Of a DNA stretch of 64,000 nt, positions 3,310 through 25,849 are shown piece after piece (the first letter of the stretch is position 1; every line of letters starts with the position of its first letter). Under the pieces are notes generated by a model. The model had not been told where the DNA came from. It did no database searches and was given only the letters and a program-made list of their open reading frames with translations. The stretch lies in NCBI GenBank assembly GCA_964359735.1, contig CAYHTZ010000004.1:409-64408 (forward strand). Reading direction: 5' to 3'. A program made the position numbers and the translations under genes. The DNA is from an uncultured Candidatus Saccharibacteria bacterium. GTDB lineage: Bacteria > Patescibacteriota > Andersenbacteria > UBA10190.

Positions 3310-5289
3310 TTACACTTCGACAATAACGGGCAGCACCATGGGGCGACGCTCGGTGCGCTGGAAGAGGAACTGGCCGACGCTGTCACGCAAATTGTTCTTC
3401 ATCATGGACCAGTTGGGCTCGCCACGTCCGCGACCGGATTGTTTCTCAATAATCTGGCGGATTTTTTGCTGCGTATCTTTCACGAGTGCTTTTTGGTCTT
3501 TCATATAGACAAACCCGCGAGAGATCATATCTGGTTCGCCAATCACACGGCCGCTGCGGCCGTCCACCGTGGCGATCACGACGACCATACCGTCGGAGGC
3601 CAGGATTTGCCGATCGCGCAGGACCACGTTGCCAATATCACCCACGCCGAGGCCGTCTACCATCACATACTTAATTTCATACTTTTCACCGGAGAGGCGA
3701 ACCTTTTCCGGTGTGATTTCAACTACTTCCCCGTTTTGGGGGAGGAGAATACGGTTACGGTCCATGCCGTGCTGTACGGCGAGCTTAGCGTGTTCCGCAC
3801 GATGGCTGAAGTGCCCATGGGCGGGGACTAAGTACTTGGGCTGGGTAAGCTCGATCATGTGCATTAAATCGTCGCGATGGCCGTGGCCTCCGGAGTGAAT
3901 ATCCATCATTTTGTAGTGGTACACTTCGGCGCCTTGCTGGTAGATTTTGTCTTTGACGAGCTGCACTGACTGTTCGTTGCCGGGAATAACGGAAGAAGAA
4001 AAGATCACAACATCACCTGCCTGAAGTTCAAGTGTACGATGCTCGTTATTCACGAGGCGCATCAAGACAGCGTTATCTTCCCCTTGGGCACCGGTGCAGA
4101 GAACTACCACTTTGCCAGGGGGGAGTTTGTTGCTTTCCTCAGAAGTAATCATGGTTTCTTTACGGAAATCCATGAAGCCAATTTCTTTGGCGATTTCGAT
4201 GTTCGTTTTCATGGAGAAGCCTTCGATGGCCACTTTACGGCCGTGGCGCTCGGCCACGGAGATCATTTGCTGCAAGCGGTCGATCATGGAAGAGAAGGTA
4301 GCCGCAATGATGCGTTGATTGGGGTGAGCAGCGAAAAGTTTGTCCAGGTTATTTTCAACAACAGATTCGGAGATAGAGTGGCCTTCGCGTTCGGAGCCGG
4401 TGGAATCGGCGTACAGAACACTGACGCCTTGTTTGCCGATTTGTTGCAAGTGCTCCTCGTCGGCGGGATGGTCGTTGACAGGGTGGTTATCGAATTTAAA
4501 ATCACCAGTAAAGGCGATGGAGCCGGCCGGCGAGCGGATTACCACACCAAAAGAGTTAGGCACGGAGTGGTTCACATGGAATGTTTCTACTTCGAGCTCT
4601 CCTAGGCGGAATTTTTCTTTGGTCTTCACTATGTTTACTTTGGGCTTGGCGTATTGCGGAAATTCTGCTTGGCGTTTTTGAACGAGCATCATGGTGAACT
4701 GGGAACCGTAAATAGGAGGGTTGCCGAGTTTCGGCAGTAAGTGAGGTACGCCACCGAAGTGGTCGTAGTGGGCGTGGGTAATAATGACGCCTTTAATGTT
4801 TTTTTCCTTGCCGGCGAGCGGACTGATATCGGGGATAACGTAATCGATGCCGTACATGTTCTCGTTGGGGAACATAAGGCCAAGGTCGACGACCACAATG
4901 TCATTCTTGTATTCCACGGCGGCGGCATTGCGGCCGATTTCTTCCAGCCCGCCCAAGGGAATTAAATACATGGCATCGGGGTTGCGGGGAGGCTGCTTTA
5001 AGGAAGGCACATCCAGCGGCCGGGTAGAACCGAAGGGAGTGCCGGTTGCTCGGCCCCGCCCGCGTCCAGGACCGCGGCCACCACGCCCGCGTCCGCCGCT
5101 GGGGCGGCCACTACTGCGGCCGCGCGGAGGACGACTGGCCGGCTGCGGACTTTGAGGCTTCGCAGCAGCATGACCGGGTGATGCTTGTCTGCGGGTACCG
5201 GAAACAGTGGGCTTACGAATAGGGGGAGGCGGAGGAGGCCCCGCCTTCGCCAAGGCTACGGCGGGCAGGGGCGGCTTCTGATCAGTCAT
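3310..5289 (-). CDS. rnj: ribonuclease J (metallo-beta-lactamase/beta-CASP) with an N-terminal Pro/Arg/Gly-rich disordered extension
   Basis: THAHYDHFGG beta-lactamase motif and a beta-CASP region. The first ~100 aa are low-complexity (PPPPPP, then RGRSSGRPSGGRGRGGRGPGRGRGR). Confidence 0.85.
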   Translation of the reverse strand: MTDQKPPLPAVALAKAGPPPPPPIRKPTVSGTRRQASPGHAAAKPQSPQPASRPPRGRSSGRPSGGRGRGGRGPGRGRGRATGTPFGSTRPLDVPSLKQPPRNPDAMYLIPLGGLEEIGRNAAAVEYKNDIVVVDLGLMFPNENMYGIDYVIPDISPLAGKEKNIKGVIITHAHYDHFGGVPHLLPKLGNPPIYGSQFTMMLVQKRQAEFPQYAKPKVNIVKTKEKFRLGELEVETFHVNHSVPNSFGVVIRSPAGSIAFTGDFKFDNHPVNDHPADEEHLQQIGKQGVSVLYADSTGSEREGHSISESVVENNLDKLFAAHPNQRIIAATFSSMIDRLQQMISVAERHGRKVAIEGFSMKTNIEIAKEIGFMDFRKETMITSEESNKLPPGKVVVLCTGAQGEDNAVLMRLVNNEHRTLELQAGDVVIFSSSVIPGNEQSVQLVKDKIYQQGAEVYHYKMMDIHSGGHGHRDDLMHMIELTQPKYLVPAHGHFSHRAEHAKLAVQHGMDRNRILLPQNGEVVEITPEKVRLSGEKYEIKYVMVDGLGVGDIGNVVLRDRQILASDGMVVVIATVDGRSGRVIGEPDMISRGFVYMKDQKALVKDTQQKIRQIIEKQSGRGRGEPNWSMMKNNLRDSVGQFLFQRTERRPMVLPVIVEV

Positions 5290-5549
5290 AACTATTCAAT
5301 TGTGTTGAAACTTAGGATATTAAACTTGAATTATCAGGCGCGACAGAAGGGAAAGGTAACGCAAAGTTCGTCACGAACCACTCTGTTGTAAAATCCGGAA
5401 GGGACTGCGCTGAGTTAATCTCCTAGGATTATAGCAAGTTGGCAAAAAATGTCAAATTTCTCTACGATATGGGCGATGGGGACCCCGCACCAGAAGCTCG
5501 CTTCGATACGGGGCAGGTGTGGTGGAATTAGGGTCCCGGTAGGGTGCAT

Positions 5550-5632
5550 GGGGACGTGGCGGAACTGGTAGACGCGCACGCTTCAGGAGCGTGTGAGTAA
5601 CCCTCGTGAGAGTTCGATTCTCTCCGTCCCCA
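5550..5632 (+). tRNA. tRNA-Leu (anticodon CAG), type II with a long variable arm
   Basis: Cloverleaf read by hand: acceptor GGGGACG/CGTCCCC, anticodon stem CACGC/GCGTG, loop TTCAGGA, T-loop TTCGATT. The layout closely matches E. coli tRNA-Leu(CAG). CCA is not encoded. Confidence 0.85.
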
Positions 5633-5635
5633 CAT

Positions 5636-7129
5636 ATGAGTTATTATCGCAATCTGCGGTTCACCAAGAAAGGCCGGTGGGCTACCTATCCAGCGGACGC
5701 AGAGTTGTGGCATACGGACCATACGTCGCGCTACTTTGAAGACCATTTTGGGCTGTGGAGAGAAATATTAGCGGTCTGTATTGTCGGCAAAGAAAAAGAG
5801 GAAGAGCAGCACATGTATGTGCCGGAGTCTTTTGTAGAGAAGTTGCATGCACGGATCCAAGAGCTGACTGCCCAAGACCCCAAGGGTATGGAGAAATTGT
5901 TTATCCCATTCTACGCCAGTAAAGAGGCAGCCAAGAGAGAAATTCCTCAGATCAACCCGCCTGACCTCTCGAAAGTTTCAGGTGGGGAGCTAGCTGATAT
6001 CTATCTCGAGAACCGCGATCAAGCTCACCGCATTGTGATTTACGATCAGTTCACGTGGCTGGCGGAGGATTATTGGCCGCCTCTCATGGATGAGGTGCTG
6101 GTGGGGAAAATGAAACTTACAAAAGACTCGGAGGAGTACAATACAGTCCTTTTTGCGTTGATTAAGCCACGTGAAATATCAACCACACTAGAGGAAAAAC
6201 GCGAACTCATTGAAGAGACTCTCAAGATCCAGCAAGGGGCACGGACGGTCGAGGTGGCCGCCGAGCGCTTAGCCCACGATTTCGGCTGGATGCCGGTGCT
6301 TGCCTTTGGTGTGCCTTGGAACGCCGAGAGGTATGAGAGTGAGCTCAAAGACACCCTCACGCGGGAGACGAGCGCGCTTGAGAGAGAGCTAGCAGAACTT
6401 AAGAATTATACACAGATTCGCGACCGGGATATCGTAGGGATTGTGAAGAAATACGACATCAGCCCAGAAGACTTGCAGGTGTTTGTTGATTTTGGCTTGG
6501 CCATTGATACCCGGAATGAAGCGGAATACGTAGCATCCGTGGCTGGGTTCTACCTCTTGCCTATCTACGACGAGATGGTGAAGAGGTTCAAGATTTCCAT
6601 CAATGAGCTGAGAACACTGCTTGAGGATGAGATGGTGGCGTGTCTGCGGGGCGAGGCGGACCCTCGCGCAGTTCTCAAAAGTAAAGGGCGCATCATAGCC
6701 TGGGGGCTCGATGGGGAGAAGAAAGAGCGAGTTAATTTCTCGCCTGGGGAAGGCGAAGAAGTGTTTACGTATGTGGAATCTCAACAAAAGGCCGGTAAGG
6801 CTCAGGCTACGTATCTGACGCGAGGGATTACTGCCAATAAAGGCAAGGCGCGGGGCAAAGCGCGGCTTGTTCCCAACCCGAGTGATAACCACAAGGTAAA
6901 ACAGGGAGACATATTGATCGCGTATTCAACGATGGTGGATAACCTGCCGGCCATGAAAAACGCTTCGGCGATTGTGACCGAATCAGGCGGGATCACGTGT
7001 CATGCTGCCGTAGTATCGCGGGAATTTGGCATTCCCTGCATCGTGAGCATGAAAAATGCCATGAGCGATTTTAAGGATGGGGAAATGGTAGAGGTGGATG
7101 CGGACGCGGGGCTTGTGCGCCGGGTATGA
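5636..7129 (+). CDS. PEP-utilizing-enzyme mobile (phospho-His swivel) domain protein with a novel helical N-terminal domain
   Basis: The C-terminal ~100 aa carry GGITCHAAVVSREFGIPCIV (catalytic His in TCHAA). The N-terminal ~400 aa has no ATP-grasp glycine loops. The ORF-track start at 5606 overlaps the tRNA, so the first ATG after the tRNA (5636) is used. It is a paralog of 23742..25190. Confidence 0.7.
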   Translation: MSYYRNLRFTKKGRWATYPADAELWHTDHTSRYFEDHFGLWREILAVCIVGKEKEEEQHMYVPESFVEKLHARIQELTAQDPKGMEKLFIPFYASKEAAKREIPQINPPDLSKVSGGELADIYLENRDQAHRIVIYDQFTWLAEDYWPPLMDEVLVGKMKLTKDSEEYNTVLFALIKPREISTTLEEKRELIEETLKIQQGARTVEVAAERLAHDFGWMPVLAFGVPWNAERYESELKDTLTRETSALERELAELKNYTQIRDRDIVGIVKKYDISPEDLQVFVDFGLAIDTRNEAEYVASVAGFYLLPIYDEMVKRFKISINELRTLLEDEMVACLRGEADPRAVLKSKGRIIAWGLDGEKKERVNFSPGEGEEVFTYVESQQKAGKAQATYLTRGITANKGKARGKARLVPNPSDNHKVKQGDILIAYSTMVDNLPAMKNASAIVTESGGITCHAAVVSREFGIPCIVSMKNAMSDFKDGEMVEVDADAGLVRRV

Positions 7130-7380
7130 GCGAAGATTGGAAAGAGGTCGATGGCAAGCTCAGGGCCATGTTTGAATTCCCTGATTTCGCCGCGGCAATG
7201 GTGTTTGTGAACAAGGTGGCAGCGGCTGCAGAGAAAGCCAATCACCACCCGGATATTCTCATTCACTACAATAAGGTAGGCATGGAACTCTGGACCCATT
7301 CGGAGGGGAAAGTCACAGACAAAGACCGCCAGCTCGCCGAGAAAATTTCTCAATTGTTTACCGTGGGTCGTCGAGGGTGA
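7126..7380 (+). CDS. pterin-4a-carbinolamine dehydratase (PCD/DCoH)
   Basis: 84 aa with the E-x-HHPD signature (AEKANHHPDILIHY). It is translationally coupled (ATGA overlap) to the upstream PEP-utilizer gene. Confidence 0.85.
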   Translation: MSEDWKEVDGKLRAMFEFPDFAAAMVFVNKVAAAAEKANHHPDILIHYNKVGMELWTHSEGKVTDKDRQLAEKISQLFTVGRRG

Positions 7381-22176: not shown

Positions 22177-23613
22177 ATGACGGAGAAGGTCGTAAACCGT
22201 ACCAAAATTGTTTGCACCATTGGTCCGGCTTCGAGTGCAAAAAGCACGCTCAAGCAAATGATTGACGCGGGGATGGATGTGGCGCGGATTAATTTTTCCC
22301 ACGCTGACCAGGATAAGAATCTGGAGCTCATGGAGACGGTGAGAGCAGCGGCGAAGGAGTCCGGGAAAGAGGTGGCCATCCTTCAGGATTTGCAGGGGCC
22401 GAAGATCCGGGTGGGGGCGCTGCCTGGGGAAGGATTAGATTTAGTGGAGGGCAGCTTCGTGAAGATACGCGCGGGGGCTGTTCAAGCCGAGCATGGGGTC
22501 ATTCCTACTCCCTATGAACGTCTCGCTCAGGACGTCAGGCGCGGGGATAGGATTCTCATTGCTGATGGCACGCGTGAGCTTGAGGTGGTCGCGCGGTCTG
22601 GGCAGGTGATAACGGCCAAAGTGCTTTTAGGGGGAAGAGTTATTTCGCATAAAGGTATTAATGTACCCACGCGTACGCTCTCGGCGGAGGCGCTGACGGA
22701 TAAAGATGAAGAGGATTTGGCCTTTGGTCTTAAACACAATATTGATTTTGTGGCGATGTCCTTTGTCCGGACCGCTCAGGATGTGCAGTTACTTAAGAAG
22801 AAAATAAAAAAATACTTGCCCGAAGATGCCGAGCCGCCCCAGATAATCGTGAAGATCGAAAAACATGAGGCGTTGGAACATTTCGATGAGATTTTAGACG
22901 AGACGGACGCAGTGATGATTGCGCGGGGAGATTTAGGGCTCGAGACCCAAGCAACACTGGTGCCGATCCGACAAAAAGAGCTGATCGCGAAGTGCGTTGT
23001 GGCCGGGAAGCCAGTGATTACGGCGACGGAGATGTTGGGTTCGATGGAGAATAACCCCCGCCCGACCCGCGCGGAGGTGAGCGATGTAGCCAATGCGGTC
23101 ATCGACCACTCGGACGCGGTGATGCTCTCGGGCGAGACAGCGAACGGCCGGTACCCCTTGCGAGCAGTGGCCACTATGGCAGAGATTATTGAAAACACGG
23201 AGGTATCACCGCTGGATGATTTGCATCCTCACAAAGATGCCACCGGAGAGTCGGTTCCCTTTGCGGTCGCGGCGGGGGCAGTGGAACTGGCCCGGCACGT
23301 GGATGCCGCGGCGATACTGGTGACTACCCACTCAGGATATTCGGCGCGGGGGGTGGCGCGCTTTCGGGCAGAGCGGCCAGTGTTTGCGGCTACGGATAGC
23401 CCGCGCGTCTCGCACCAACTCTTGCTCTCATGGGGAGTAGTGCCGATTCTGATACAAGGGTACGGCCAGCCGGAGCAGATGACGCACTCGGCTCTTGACC
23501 ATCTGCATAAGCAAAAAAGAATCAAGAAAGGCGACCGAGTAGTGGGGGTCTCAGGCCTCGCTCGCTCTGAAGGCGGTTTTGACTCAGGCGTCCGCGTCGT
23601 GGAGGTTGCCTGA
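22177..23613 (+). CDS. pyk: pyruvate kinase
   Basis: TKIVCTIGPAS N-terminus and MIARGDLG active-site region; 478 aa. Confidence 0.9.
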   Translation: MTEKVVNRTKIVCTIGPASSAKSTLKQMIDAGMDVARINFSHADQDKNLELMETVRAAAKESGKEVAILQDLQGPKIRVGALPGEGLDLVEGSFVKIRAGAVQAEHGVIPTPYERLAQDVRRGDRILIADGTRELEVVARSGQVITAKVLLGGRVISHKGINVPTRTLSAEALTDKDEEDLAFGLKHNIDFVAMSFVRTAQDVQLLKKKIKKYLPEDAEPPQIIVKIEKHEALEHFDEILDETDAVMIARGDLGLETQATLVPIRQKELIAKCVVAGKPVITATEMLGSMENNPRPTRAEVSDVANAVIDHSDAVMLSGETANGRYPLRAVATMAEIIENTEVSPLDDLHPHKDATGESVPFAVAAGAVELARHVDAAAILVTTHSGYSARGVARFRAERPVFAATDSPRVSHQLLLSWGVVPILIQGYGQPEQMTHSALDHLHKQKRIKKGDRVVGVSGLARSEGGFDSGVRVVEVA

Positions 23614-23643: not shown

Positions 23644-23730
23644 GGTGGGGTGCGAGAGTGGTTTAATCGGGCAGTCTTGAAAACTGCTGTGGGTTAACGC
23701 CCACCGTGAGTTCGAATCTCACCCCCACCG
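23644..23730 (+). tRNA. tRNA-Ser (anticodon TGA), type II
   Basis: Acceptor GGTGGGG/CCCCACC, anticodon arm GCAGT-CTTGAAA-ACTGC, long variable arm TGTGGGTTAACGCCCACC, T-arm GTGAG-TTCGAAT-CTCAC. The layout matches E. coli tRNA-Ser(UGA). Confidence 0.8.
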
Positions 23731-23741
23731 CCGAAGGTCCT

Positions 23742-25190
23742 ATGACTAAAAACAATTGGGATATATACGAGAGGATTTATAGCAGTCACTGGTTTTTGAC
23801 AAGTTATAACGCCCAAGGTTTTGTCTTTGACTTCCCTGCCATGGGCGGCGGCAGCTTCATGACCCAAGCCGTGTACGTTATGGAGAAGGGCATGTGTCGC
23901 TATATATTCGACAGCGACGAATTCGAGCGGGCTGCGCAGTATACATCAGATCGTCTAATCAATGATGATAAATGGCGGGAGAATGTTTACCAGAACATTA
24001 ATTTGTACACGAGGCGGTATTTTGCGGCAGGTGAGAGATTACGAAAAACCCCTCTGGATACTCTTTCCCATGGAGAACTTGTGAAGATCGTTAGAGAGAT
24101 TATCCCTTTGCAACACTATCACCAAGTGTATAGTGTGCTGGCTAACGGCGTGGTGCTTGATGGGAGGAATCACTTGTCAGATAGGATTCGAGAGGAGTTA
24201 CGCTCTCTCATGGGAAGTCCAGATGACTTTGACGAGCAATGGTCTCTTCTTTCCCAGTCCGCCAAGATGAGTTTGAGGCAGCGCAAGGAACATGCTATCG
24301 CTCAGCTTGCCAGTGAGAGCAAAGTAACTTCCCGGGTAGTAGAGAGGAAGCTTCGCAACTTACATCAGAAGTACTGTTGGCTGGATTACAATAATATGGG
24401 CCCGGCGGCCTCATTTGAGAAGTTTGAGCAGGAGCTGGCGGAAGCTCGCAGCCAGAATAAGAACATTACTCTCAAAGAGGAACTCAAGGCTCTCAGAAAA
24501 AAACAGATCGATCTGATGCGCCGATTGAGAATCAGCCAGCGTGGGAAATTTCTCATTCGATTAGCGCAAGGAGTAATTTGGCAAAAAGGGTATCGCAAAG
24601 ATATGCAATATCACGGGTTTTATTGTTACGAAAATCTTTTTAGGGAATTGGCGCGCAGGCAAAACACCCCAGACTGGCAATCATTCTCGTATCTTTTTCC
24701 TTGGGAAGTGGTGCGTCACGTTCTTACCGGAAGTCATTCAGTGAAAGAACTCAATGAACGGCGAGAGTACTCTTGCTTGGTTGTGCGGAAAACAGGTCTG
24801 GAGGTTAAGGTGGGAAAGGCAGCGCAAGCGTTTGTAAAGGGCTTAGGGCTGCGGGAGGATTTCTCCACCATGACAGAAGCTAAAGGACAGTGTGCATATG
24901 CGGGCAAGGTCCGAGGAACAGTGAAAATTATTCAAACTCCGGCGGATATGGAGAAGATGAACGCTGGAGACGTTTTGGTTTCCCAGGCTACCAGCCCTGA
25001 CTTACTCTCGGCAATGAAGCGAGCGGGAGCGATTGTTACCAATACCGGCGGACTCATTTGCCATGCGGCGATTACTTCTCGTGAACTCAAAATACCGTGT
25101 ATTGTGGGGACCGCTAAAGCCACCTTGATCTTTAAGGATGGGGATCAGGTCGAAGTTGATGCCACCCACGGGCGTATAAGAAAGTTATGA
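23742..25190 (+). CDS. PEP-utilizing-enzyme mobile (phospho-His swivel) domain protein, paralog of 5636..7129
   Basis: C-terminal GGLICHAAITSRELKIPCIV. The N-terminal domain aligns with the first paralog (e.g. LDTLSHGEL vs LSKVSGGEL; CWLDYNNMGP...EKFEQEL vs GWMPVLAFGVPW...ERYESEL). The start is moved to the first Met clear of the tRNA. Confidence 0.7.
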   Translation: MTKNNWDIYERIYSSHWFLTSYNAQGFVFDFPAMGGGSFMTQAVYVMEKGMCRYIFDSDEFERAAQYTSDRLINDDKWRENVYQNINLYTRRYFAAGERLRKTPLDTLSHGELVKIVREIIPLQHYHQVYSVLANGVVLDGRNHLSDRIREELRSLMGSPDDFDEQWSLLSQSAKMSLRQRKEHAIAQLASESKVTSRVVERKLRNLHQKYCWLDYNNMGPAASFEKFEQELAEARSQNKNITLKEELKALRKKQIDLMRRLRISQRGKFLIRLAQGVIWQKGYRKDMQYHGFYCYENLFRELARRQNTPDWQSFSYLFPWEVVRHVLTGSHSVKELNERREYSCLVVRKTGLEVKVGKAAQAFVKGLGLREDFSTMTEAKGQCAYAGKVRGTVKIIQTPADMEKMNAGDVLVSQATSPDLLSAMKRAGAIVTNTGGLICHAAITSRELKIPCIVGTAKATLIFKDGDQVEVDATHGRIRKL

Positions 25191-25849
25191 GCAAGATCAA
25201 GGCAGTTATTTACGATGTGGACGACCTGATGGTTGATTCATACGCGTTGCATGTGGAGGCGTCGGAGAAAGCACTCGAACGGTACGGTCACAGATTCGAT
25301 GAGCTGCCCGAGGAGCTGCGGTCACACTTTGTGGGGAGACGGGTGATCGATAATTTGAAGGACACGGTGGCGTACCTCAAGCTCGATGTTGACCCTGAAG
25401 TCATGTATCAAGAACGATTGGCGCTTTTTCATAGACTCGTCCGCGAGAAACTTGAAGCCAGGCCGGGGCTGCAAGAATCCATGACGCTTTTCCGCAGGCA
25501 CAACTTGCGTCTCGCAATTGCTTCATCGGGGGCGGGGGAGTACCTCGATGCAGTGCTGGAAAAGTTTAACCTCGCCGGGTACTTCGAAGTGATTATCTCC
25601 GGCGGGGATGTGCAAAAGGGGAAGCCTGACCCCGAAACTTATTTGGTGGCTGTGCAGAAGCTGGGGCTTACCCCAGCTGAATGCCTGGTCCTGGAAGATG
25701 CCAAGAACGGTGTAGAGTCGGCAAAAGCGGCGGGTTGTAAATGTATCGCCATACGCAACCCAAACACTCCAGTTCAAGACCACTCGGGGGCGGACAAAGT
25801 TCTTAATTCTCTCAGCGACGTTACCATTGAGATGGTGGAGTCGTTGTAA
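25187..25849 (+). CDS. HAD-IA family hydrolase (beta-phosphoglucomutase-like phosphatase)
   Basis: DxD motif IYDVDDLMVDS, later K...GKPDP and a DAKNG motif IV. The start overlaps the stop of the upstream PEP-utilizer paralog. Confidence 0.75.
   Translation: MSKIKAVIYDVDDLMVDSYALHVEASEKALERYGHRFDELPEELRSHFVGRRVIDNLKDTVAYLKLDVDPEVMYQERLALFHRLVREKLEARPGLQESMTLFRRHNLRLAIASSGAGEYLDAVLEKFNLAGYFEVIISGGDVQKGKPDPETYLVAVQKLGLTPAECLVLEDAKNGVESAKAAGCKCIAIRNPNTPVQDHSGADKVLNSLSDVTIEMVESL

Follow-up and report, generated by a model that had tools for sequence, protein, structure and literature searches.

The gene studied here lies in a window of 64 kb (the whole stretch of DNA analyzed) and encodes what is probably the substrate-binding and phospho-histidine swivel subunit (H-type) of a split, ATP-dependent dikinase that resembles rifampin phosphotransferase (RPH). 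The chemistry is drawn by analogy with characterized enzymes. A role as catalytic, substrate-binding subunit is more likely than one as passive carrier. Most likely, the enzyme type is a known one and the family to which the protein belongs, here called F1, is previously undescribed.

The gene and its surroundings

The target region has the following features, all on the + strand.

5550..5632, +, tRNA-Leu(CAG) (Rfam RF00005, 55.7 bits; ARAGORN end 5633)
5636..7129, +, target CDS, family F1, 497 aa (ORF list, ~490-aa orthologue family, AlphaFold, Foldseek)
5636..6790, +, N-terminal domain, aa 1-385, mostly helical; predicted substrate-binding domain
6512..6529, +, RNEAEY motif, aa 293-298 (conserved columns, translation)
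6824..7126, +, phospho-histidine swivel domain, aa ~397-497 (PF00391, PDB sequence matches)
6983..7021, +, swivel motif SGGITCHAAVVSR (translation)
7126..7380, +, pterin-4a-carbinolamine dehydratase-like gene, 84 aa (Pfam PF01329, E 4.1e-26)

The ATG at 5636 is backed by the N-termini of orthologues and by the NCBI annotation of an identical protein (P0001), which begins MSYYRN. Given where the tRNA-Leu ends, the ATG starts at the fourth nucleotide after the tRNA, with CAT as the spacer; no CCA is encoded at the 3′-end of the tRNA. At the other end of the gene, the stop codon shares an ATGA overlap with the start of the dehydratase gene. Both junctions had been pointed out in the initial annotation and both are borne out, the first by ARAGORN, Rfam and the ORF coordinates, and the second by the sequence and the PF01329 match. 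They are present at the target and are not kept among 44 related loci. Only two of these have a same-strand tRNA less than 200 nt upstream (~170 nt in L004 and ~60 nt in L028), and hence abutment to a tRNA is not a feature of the family. We also reject the dehydratase as a conserved functional partner: a homologue is found within 10 kb in one of the 44 loci. The GC content around the target is uniform (0.52-0.54), which lends no support to a genomic island beside the tRNA. PADLOC, which covers anti-phage defense systems, gave no match to the target, to a second paralogue in the window or to an ATP-grasp.

A swivel domain preceded by a helical domain

The C-terminal part of the protein is a swivel domain of PEP-utilizing enzymes, as had been recognized at the outset. 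PF00391 (PEP-utilizers mobile domain) is the sole Pfam match in the protein (aa 422-492, E 1.4e-23). The catalytic motif is intact: GGITCHAA is found at 6986-7009, and the codon of the catalytic histidine, His456, at 7001-7003, within GGITCHAAVVSRE. The histidine is retained in all 124 full swivel domains compared. As residue 456 of 497, it lies within ~50 residues of the C-terminus, as is typical of H-type subunits. In sequence, the swivel is nearest to that of PEP synthase (PpsA): PEP synthase swivel domains are its PDB sequence matches (E 1e-21), the PEP synthase models TIGR01418 and PRK06464 score best, and both proteins have GGxTCHAA with Thr two residues before the histidine (His-2), in keeping with the pattern GGxT[SC]HAA.

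The likeness to PEP synthase stops at the swivel. In Pfam, the target has neither the ATP-grasp domain PPDK_N (PF01326) nor the TIM barrel PEP-utilizers_C (PF02896), which agrees with the earlier view that both catalytic domains are missing and that the protein is neither PEP synthase nor PPDK. The NCBIfam and PDB sequence matches are confined to aa ~383-497, and the NCBIfam scores are all far under the family cut-offs: 103.6 and 114.2 bits for the PEP synthase models (cut-offs 739.75 and 598, respectively), 52 bits for a swivel-only match to the RPH model NF041857 RIF_Ptrans_rph (cut-off 999), and a weak, swivel-limited 31 bits for the Enzyme I model TIGR01417 (cut-off 341.7). Unlike PEP synthase, the target has no PEP/pyruvate TIM barrel, carries its swivel at the C-terminus rather than centrally, and uses another second substrate-binding domain. 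The hallmarks of PTS Enzyme I, an HPr-binding helical subdomain in the swivel and a C-terminal PEP-binding domain, are also absent from the target. The usual automatic labels "PEP-utilizing enzyme" and "pyruvate, water dikinase" would be misleading in metabolic reconstructions, where they suggest PEP synthesis for gluconeogenesis.

The rest of the protein, aa 1-385, has no sequence match in Pfam, NCBIfam or PDB, and none of the RPH, PRK06241 and PRK08296 sequence models matches the N-domain, that of fused orthologues included. Structure prediction had been proposed as a check on the N-terminus. The AlphaFold model is confident (pLDDT 94.8 for the full-length protein and also for the N-domain modeled by itself), and its N-domain is mostly helical with two small β-sheets. 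When the full-length model was compared with PDB by Foldseek, the best matches were six RPH-Lm entries (E 1.6e-13 to 7.1e-11 over 558-615 columns), with a TMq of 0.50-0.52, except for the two entries of a G527Y mutant (0.34). Structures that match the swivel only gave a TMq of ~0.2, and EI N-domain structures 0.16. With the N-domain alone, a probability of 1.0 was reached only by the six RPH-Lm entries (E 6e-4 to 4e-3, TMq 0.39-0.46, 12% identity), the next PDB match being at E 0.26. RPH-Lm (PDB 5FBS, 5FBT, 5FBU, 5HV1; PMC4844700) is the only solved structure that resembles the N-domain in this search. In the predicted model, as in RPH, a fold of the RIF-binding type lies directly ahead of the swivel. 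By these matches, which are modest, the N-domain is a remote fold relative of the rifampin-binding domain of RPH, and its predicted fold is not new. The initial picture of a novel domain of ~400 helical residues of unknown fold survives in part: the domain is helical in the model and unrecognized by sequence, whereas an unknown fold is not supported, given the remote RPH match. The target differs from RPH-Lm in having no ATP-grasp, and nothing suggests a rifamycin as its substrate.

The N-domain is also conserved. The F1 orthologues, which are ~490 aa long and found in Patescibacteria, are 35-63% identical in this domain, and 41 columns are invariant among 56 full-length sequences. Most of the invariant residues in the domain have polar side chains (Arg, Glu, Asp, Gln and Ser/Thr). 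The RNEAEY motif is kept in >90% of the 56 members and is invariant in a 19-sequence alignment of N-domains. Its arginine, Arg293, is a candidate for phosphate handling by analogy with RPH-Lm, where Arg666 sits 159 aa before His825 (PMC4844700). An arginine ~160 aa upstream of the catalytic histidine is common to the two proteins, and in most modules and paralogues one is found ~155-163 aa ahead of the swivel histidine. The maintenance of F1 across lineages, together with its polar invariant residues, is a hint that the substrate is a common metabolite, as opposed to a xenobiotic peculiar to one lineage.

The probable ATP-grasp partner and the presumed reaction

The most recurrent non-paralogous neighbor across the 44 related loci is a PPDK_N ATP-grasp, which is found within 10 kb in 12 of them. 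In three loci (L019, L035 and L041) the two form one reading frame, with the ATP-grasp ahead of the orthologue; the other nine have a stand-alone or partial ATP-grasp gene, the complete ones of ~311 aa. At L037, it is a separate gene directly downstream of the orthologue. The fusions (P0068 of 1159 aa, P0069 of 829 aa, and the ORFs of 818 aa at L041 and 1602 aa at L019) have the order PPDK_N, F1-type N-domain and swivel, which is also the order of ATP-grasp, substrate-binding domain and swivel in RPH-Lm. PEP synthase models score best for the ATP-grasp of the fused orthologues as well. In a profile search, each of the 120 top-scoring relatives of the ATP-grasp has a length of 310-354 aa and PF01326 as its sole domain, and they are mostly from Patescibacteria where the source names the organism. 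No protein of the target's MAG (AAB538_*) is among these best 120 matches. The 64-kb window, which is part of an 83,651-bp NCBI contig, has no PPDK_N gene by tblastn with two PPDK_N queries or by hmmsearch (E<=1) with an HMM derived from sequences of the loci. For this reason, the partner of the target itself can only be inferred from its relatives, and the ATP-grasp gene would lie elsewhere in the target's genome.

The chemistry envisaged is modeled on RPH, HpeHI and PpsAB. The separately encoded ATP-grasp protein (PPDK_N only, ~311 aa) would bind ATP, and His456 of the swivel would attack the β-phosphate; an interface with the histidine beside the β-phosphate is reported for HpeH:HpeI. The γ-phosphate would leave as Pi, generating phospho-His456 and AMP. 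The swivel would then swing back to the target's own N-terminal helical domain, where the phosphate would be handed to the bound substrate, probably to a hydroxyl of a small molecule. The net reaction would be substrate + ATP + H2O → substrate-P + AMP + Pi. As to which substrate, the conserved neighbors in the 44 related loci give no indication.

Two-component dikinases have been characterized in Rhodococcus (HpeHI), Corynebacterium (CreHI) and Thauera (the phenylphosphate synthase PpsAB; PMC12167813). The resemblance to the target is in the design: the H or A subunit has an RPH-like substrate-binding domain and then a C-terminal swivel, with the catalytic histidine near the C-terminus, the ATP-grasp resides on a separate subunit (for the target, a prediction made from its relatives), and the flow of phosphate from ATP to histidine to substrate is presumably common to all. 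The target differs in being shorter (497 aa vs. ~600-640 aa) and in sharing with PEP synthase the Thr at His-2, which is Met in the others. The substrate-binding domains of HpeH, CreH and PpsA are ~45% identical among themselves, whereas the N-domain of the target has no detectable sequence similarity to them, judged via the PRK08296 models, which align with aa ~384-495 only. The latter are ~600-aa "hypothetical protein" models with the swivel at the C-terminus, and we take them to represent PpsA-like proteins. A single-chain version of the design is seen in the prodiginine ligases PigC, RedH and HapC and in other PRK06241 "PEP synthase-like" enzymes, in which an ATP-grasp is followed by a middle domain and, at the C-terminus, a swivel. 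With ATP, these fused enzymes of secondary-metabolite clusters activate an oxygen of a small molecule. The target matches them in the swivel only (57-63 bits vs. cut-offs of 1300-1350).

Other readings of the protein need to be considered. The initial annotation suggested a phosphocarrier or regulatory module. In such a module, a partner resembling Enzyme I or PEP synthase would load His456 with phosphate from PEP, and the N-domain would serve as a sensor or docking site rather than a catalytic one. A swivel closest to those of PEP synthases would fit such a module, as would the retained Thr at His-2, a residue that is regulatory in PEP synthase (PMC12167813), and a 64-kb window without an ATP-grasp. 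We nevertheless find this reading unlikely: no family of PEP-binding or TIM-barrel proteins recurs in at least three of the 44 loci, and the N-domain, with its invariant polar motifs, looks like a catalytic domain that binds a substrate. What holds of the proposal is that the protein must work with a partner; the only recurrent one is an ATP-grasp, nearby or even fused to orthologues, and not a PEP-dependent or Enzyme-I-like protein.

The chance is slim, too, that the protein is a phosphotransferase that does without an ATP-grasp altogether, His456 shuttling phosphate between phosphorylated and unphosphorylated substrates. There is a precedent, in that HpeH alone can move phosphate from 4-phosphoacetophenone to acetovanillone (PMC12167813), and besides the lack of an ATP-grasp in the window, the gene stands alone at many related loci. 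Yet that lack covers just 64 kb of the genome, stand-alone ATP-grasps are plentiful in the same lineages, and their fusion or adjacency throughout the family favors an ATP-driven cycle. Finally, a divergent PEP synthase or PPDK with a hidden ATP-grasp or PEP-binding domain, or a decaying remnant of one, is very improbable even though the top NCBIfam and PDB sequence matches are PEP synthases: the Pfam, NCBIfam and PDB sequence and profile searches and the helical, RPH-like model leave no room in the N-terminus for a concealed ATP-grasp or TIM barrel, the matches reach 104-114 bits against cut-offs of 598-740, the family is well conserved, and the fused orthologues carry a genuine, separate PPDK_N ahead of the N-domain.

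Multiplication of the predicted H-type subunits

The split dikinase, if this is what the target belongs to, appears to have multiplied its substrate-binding subunits in Patescibacteria. Many orthologues belong to tandem arrays, the largest with 12 paralogues within 21 kb of a genome of roughly 1 Mb, and no locus has more than one complete ATP-grasp gene. The array paralogues are 48-58% identical in their swivels and 27-29% in their N-domains, as would be expected if all dock to one ATP-grasp and bind different substrates. The split RPH-like dikinases characterized to date are all 1:1 pairs that phosphorylate phenolics, encoded in aromatic-catabolism clusters (HpeHI, CreHI and PpsAB), whereas the target's group, in Patescibacteria, often has many H-type paralogues per ATP-grasp and an N-domain that is unrecognizable by sequence. 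The literature searched had no description of such a system in Patescibacteria.

We tentatively entertain, at somewhat less than even confidence, a one-to-many kinase system in some Patescibacteria (MAGs labeled Doudnabacteria, Magasanikbacteria and Falkowbacteria). A single, highly conserved ATP-grasp would charge the swivel histidines of as many as twelve diverged subunits for substrate binding, present in tandem arrays or in fused chains of 1600-2300 aa, and provide these very small genomes with a broad panel of ATP-driven phosphorylations by which host-derived or environmental compounds could be scavenged or neutralized. The target would belong to the most conserved module (F1); its N-domain would define a new sequence family, and its substrate may be a common metabolite. 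So large an investment in ATP-to-AMP kinases by host-dependent organisms of minimal metabolism would offer a lead as to which compounds they import, keep or detoxify.

The window itself has a second H-type paralogue, in the following setting.

23644..23732, +, tRNA-Ser(UGA) (ARAGORN; Rfam end 23729)
23742..25190, +, second H-type paralogue, 482 aa, divergent N-domain and swivel with GGLICHAA (ORF; PF00391, E 1.3e-22)
25187..25849, +, HAD-family hydrolase, 220 aa (Pfam HAD_2, E 6.5e-32)

This paralogue begins 9 nt after the tRNA-Ser and is 29% identical over ~476 aa to the array paralogues of L001. Direct profile comparison of its N-domain with that of F1 was not significant (hhalign E 0.044), and the two are connected only via intermediate paralogues. 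Its stop is overlapped by the start of the HAD hydrolase gene. HAD genes also adjoin such arrays in four related loci (L001, L018, L021 and L033).

The swivel domain and the N-terminal domain

The only Pfam domain in the target is the C-terminal mobile domain of PEP-utilizers (PF00391, aa 422-492, E 1.4e-23), as the initial annotation had described it. The coding features concerned are as follows.

5636-7129, + strand: target CDS, 497 aa (from the first ATG of the ORF)
6983-7021, + strand: swivel motif SGGITCHAAVVSR (translation)
7001-7003, + strand: codon of His456, within SGGITCHAAVVSR

Searches of NCBIfam and PDB sequences, whether with the target alone or with a 56-sequence profile, match aa ~383-497 only, and the target scores far under family cut-offs (PEP synthase, 104-114 bits vs. 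598-740; rifampin phosphotransferase, RPH, 52 vs. 999). By their curated models, the target lies outside the PEP synthase, PPDK, RPH, PigC and Enzyme I families, and on sequence comparison its family has no counterpart in Pfam or NCBIfam. With the PRK08296 models, which we take to represent PpsA-like proteins, similarity is in the swivel only. A search with aa 1-385 returned 67 proteins, nearly all of 475-525 aa with PF00391 only and mostly from Patescibacteria where the source names the organism.

An AlphaFold2 model of the target, built from 56 family members (pLDDT 94.8, pTM 0.92), has residues 1-385 mostly helical with two small sheets, a low-confidence linker (388-394) and then the swivel. 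In Foldseek against the PDB, the top matches of the full-length model are six entries for the rifampin phosphotransferase RPH-Lm (E 1.6e-13 to 7.1e-11, 558-615 aligned columns), with TMq of 0.50-0.52 for four and 0.34 for the two G527Y-mutant entries; proteins sharing just the swivel reach ~0.2. The N-domain modelled alone (pLDDT 94.8) reaches probability 1.0 with these six entries only (12% identity, TMq 0.39-0.46, E 6e-4 to 4e-3), and the match that follows is at E 0.26. The fold previously called unknown is thus, as modelled, remotely RPH-like. Because the query is helical and the full-length match continues collinearly through the C-terminal swivel, it appears to be the central rifampin-binding domain of RPH that is matched, and not the alpha/beta ATP-grasp.

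ATP-grasp partners and module arrays in relatives

A search of 1.84 billion representative proteins with an N-domain profile (E<=1e-3) found 483 representatives, most of 470-530 aa. Some of these representatives are fusions: in P0068 (1159 aa), P0069 (829 aa), P0081 (820 aa) and P0131 (789 aa) a PPDK_N ATP-grasp is followed by the N-domain and the swivel, the order found in RPH, and P0167 (2309 aa) combines a single PPDK_N with four swivels. In fused orthologues, RPH and PRK06241 models pick up the ATP-grasp and the swivel but leave the N-domain unmatched.

We scanned 44 related loci, 41 from reference genomes and three from exact look-ups. A PPDK_N ATP-grasp lies within 10 kb in 12 of the 44 (ten complete, the other two frameshifted or cut at a contig edge), a lower bound since contig ends cut many loci. 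L019, L035 and L041 carry it as an in-frame fusion with the window gene's orthologue; the fused ORF has 818 aa in L041 and 1602 aa in L019 (9035-13840), where one PPDK_N is joined to three swivel modules. In L037 the ATP-grasp gene directly follows the orthologue. When all neighbouring ORFs were clustered, the ATP-grasp was the most recurrent non-paralogous neighbour, after which came an ECF-type sigma factor (in 5 loci) and a HAD hydrolase (in 4); clusters common to at least three loci included no PEP-binding protein. The early reading of the target was partly right, in that it would work with a partner; its reading as a possible phosphocarrier or regulator is not supported, since among neighbours shared by at least three of the 44 loci it is an ATP-grasp, not a PEP-binding protein, that recurs, in some loci as a fusion. 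The 120 best-scoring relatives of this ATP-grasp are all 310-354 aa long (most 311-312 aa) with PF01326 only, and mostly come from Patescibacteria where the source names the organism.

The family of the window gene (F1) usually occurs among paralogues: the 44 loci and the window hold 129 swivel-domain matches, many in tandem same-strand arrays.

L031:524-21138: 12 modules
L011:635-15269: 9 modules, headed by one stand-alone ATP-grasp gene (635-1603)
L034:897-12846: 8 modules
L007, L018, L021, L032: 7 modules each

Complete ATP-grasp genes number at most one per locus. In the first three arrays the N-domains differ greatly between modules, and within arrays swivels are 48-58% identical vs. 27-29% for N-domains. 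The N-domains of 122 modules form 52 clusters at >=150 bits, and F1, with 39 members, far exceeds every other cluster, a count biased by retrieval of the loci with F1. The catalytic His is kept in all 124 full-length swivel domains, and in most modules an Arg precedes it by 155-163 residues. In F1 this is Arg293, in a D-x-RNEAEY motif, conserved in >90% of 56 family members and invariant in a 19-sequence N-domain alignment. By spacing, not by alignment, it would correspond to the phosphate-binding Arg666 of RPH-Lm, 159 residues ahead of His825 (PMC4844700).

Lone swivel genes of 107-111 aa that retain the His lie upstream of a stand-alone ATP-grasp gene in L001 (13594-13929), L021 (14402-14722) and L032 (9307-9627). 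In L021 and L032 the swivel gene runs into the start of the ATP-grasp gene; in L001 an opposite-strand 203-aa gene intervenes. Some family members (P0034; L012; L008, L011, L017, L022 and L028; L040) are in MAGs labelled archaeon, Woesearchaeota, Gammaproteobacteria or Planctomycetota. Such labels probably reflect mis-binning or mislabelling of Patescibacteria contigs; horizontal transfer is the less likely reading.

A proposed phosphotransfer cycle

In RPH, the ATP-grasp pyrophosphorylates the swivel His from ATP, the gamma-phosphate is hydrolysed, and the swivel delivers the beta-phosphate to the substrate bound by the central domain (PMC4844700). The two-component dikinases HpeHI, CreHI and PpsAB follow an RPH-like cycle in which the ATP-grasp is a protein of its own; in HpeHI this is HpeI, and HpeH is the subunit that combines a RIF-binding-like domain with the swivel. 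Changing the His to Gln abolishes activity, and HpeH without its partner can transfer phosphate from substrate to substrate (PMC12167813).

The target has the anatomy of such an H subunit, which is also that of the C-terminal two-thirds of RPH, with an intact His motif, and its orthologues are fused to or adjoin an ATP-grasp. From these observed features of anatomy and genomic linkage we propose, by analogy, an RPH/HpeHI-like cycle. The ATP-grasp protein would use ATP to phosphorylate His456, which would pass the phosphate to a substrate bound in the N-domain, with release of AMP and Pi. As no PPDK_N was found within the 64-kb window, the partner would be encoded elsewhere in this genome. The target swivel and the family's ATP-grasp are closer to PEP synthase than to RPH; at His-2 the target has Thr, as does PEP synthase, whereas RPH and HpeH have Met (PMC12167813).

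Within a known kind of enzyme, the target represents a new sequence family and, at the level of the system, a new variant. The main interest lies in the apparent service of many modules by one ATP-grasp in streamlined genomes, and in what the modules may phosphorylate. A limited literature search, weak evidence of absence, found nothing on this family or its arrays in Patescibacteria.

Genomic setting in the window

The target adjoins a tRNA gene and overlaps the gene that follows, as first noted.

5550-5632/5633, + strand: tRNA-Leu(CAG) (ARAGORN; Rfam RF00005, 55.7 bits)
start overlapping the target stop as ATGA, + strand: pterin-4a-carbinolamine dehydratase, 84 aa (Pfam, sequence)

Three bases, CAT, separate the tRNA end, which encodes no CCA, from the ATG at 5636 (junction within window 5633-5638). 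This start is backed by orthologue alignment from the ATG on (W15, W25, F34 and F38 conserved), and NCBI annotation of the identical, partial protein likewise begins MSYYRN; a GTG at 5606, giving a longer ORF in the ORF list, falls within the tRNA. Since the gap is too short for a promoter (or a Shine-Dalgarno) and a weak promoter-like site precedes the tRNA (5439-5468), the target is probably co-transcribed with tRNA-Leu, whose 3' processing would yield a nearly leaderless mRNA. The abutment is not conserved: a tRNA on the same strand, no more than 200 nt upstream, is present in just two of the 44 related loci, L004 and L028. Nor is the dehydratase a conserved neighbour in the related-locus scan.

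The window has a second, divergent module.

22177-23613: pyruvate kinase, just upstream of the tRNA
23644-23729 (Rfam), + strand: tRNA-Ser(UGA) (ARAGORN anticodon TGA)
23742-25190, + strand: N-domain and swivel (PF00391, E 1.3e-22)
25187-25849, + strand: HAD hydrolase, overlapped by the module

The module begins 9 nt after the tRNA, so both swivel genes of the window directly follow a tRNA gene. Rfam places this tRNA in its tRNA-Sec model (50.8 bits vs. a cut-off of 47); it is probably a Ser tRNA with a long arm and not one for selenocysteine.

GC content gives no sign of a genomic island near the target, and its neighbours are housekeeping genes (phosphomannomutase, inositol monophosphatase, TrpRS, RNase J, GT2 glycosyltransferase, a PGI-like SIS protein, UvrA/UvrC, GroEL and pyruvate kinase). 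A perfect 12/12 sigma-70-type promoter match (5428-5455, -; TTGACA, 16 nt, TATAAT, upstream TG) precedes the gene of RNase J (3310-5289, -). Its product has an N-terminal extension of ~100 aa rich in Pro, Gly and Arg (PPPPPPIRK...GRGRGGRGPGRGRGR) that falls outside the Pfam-matched core.
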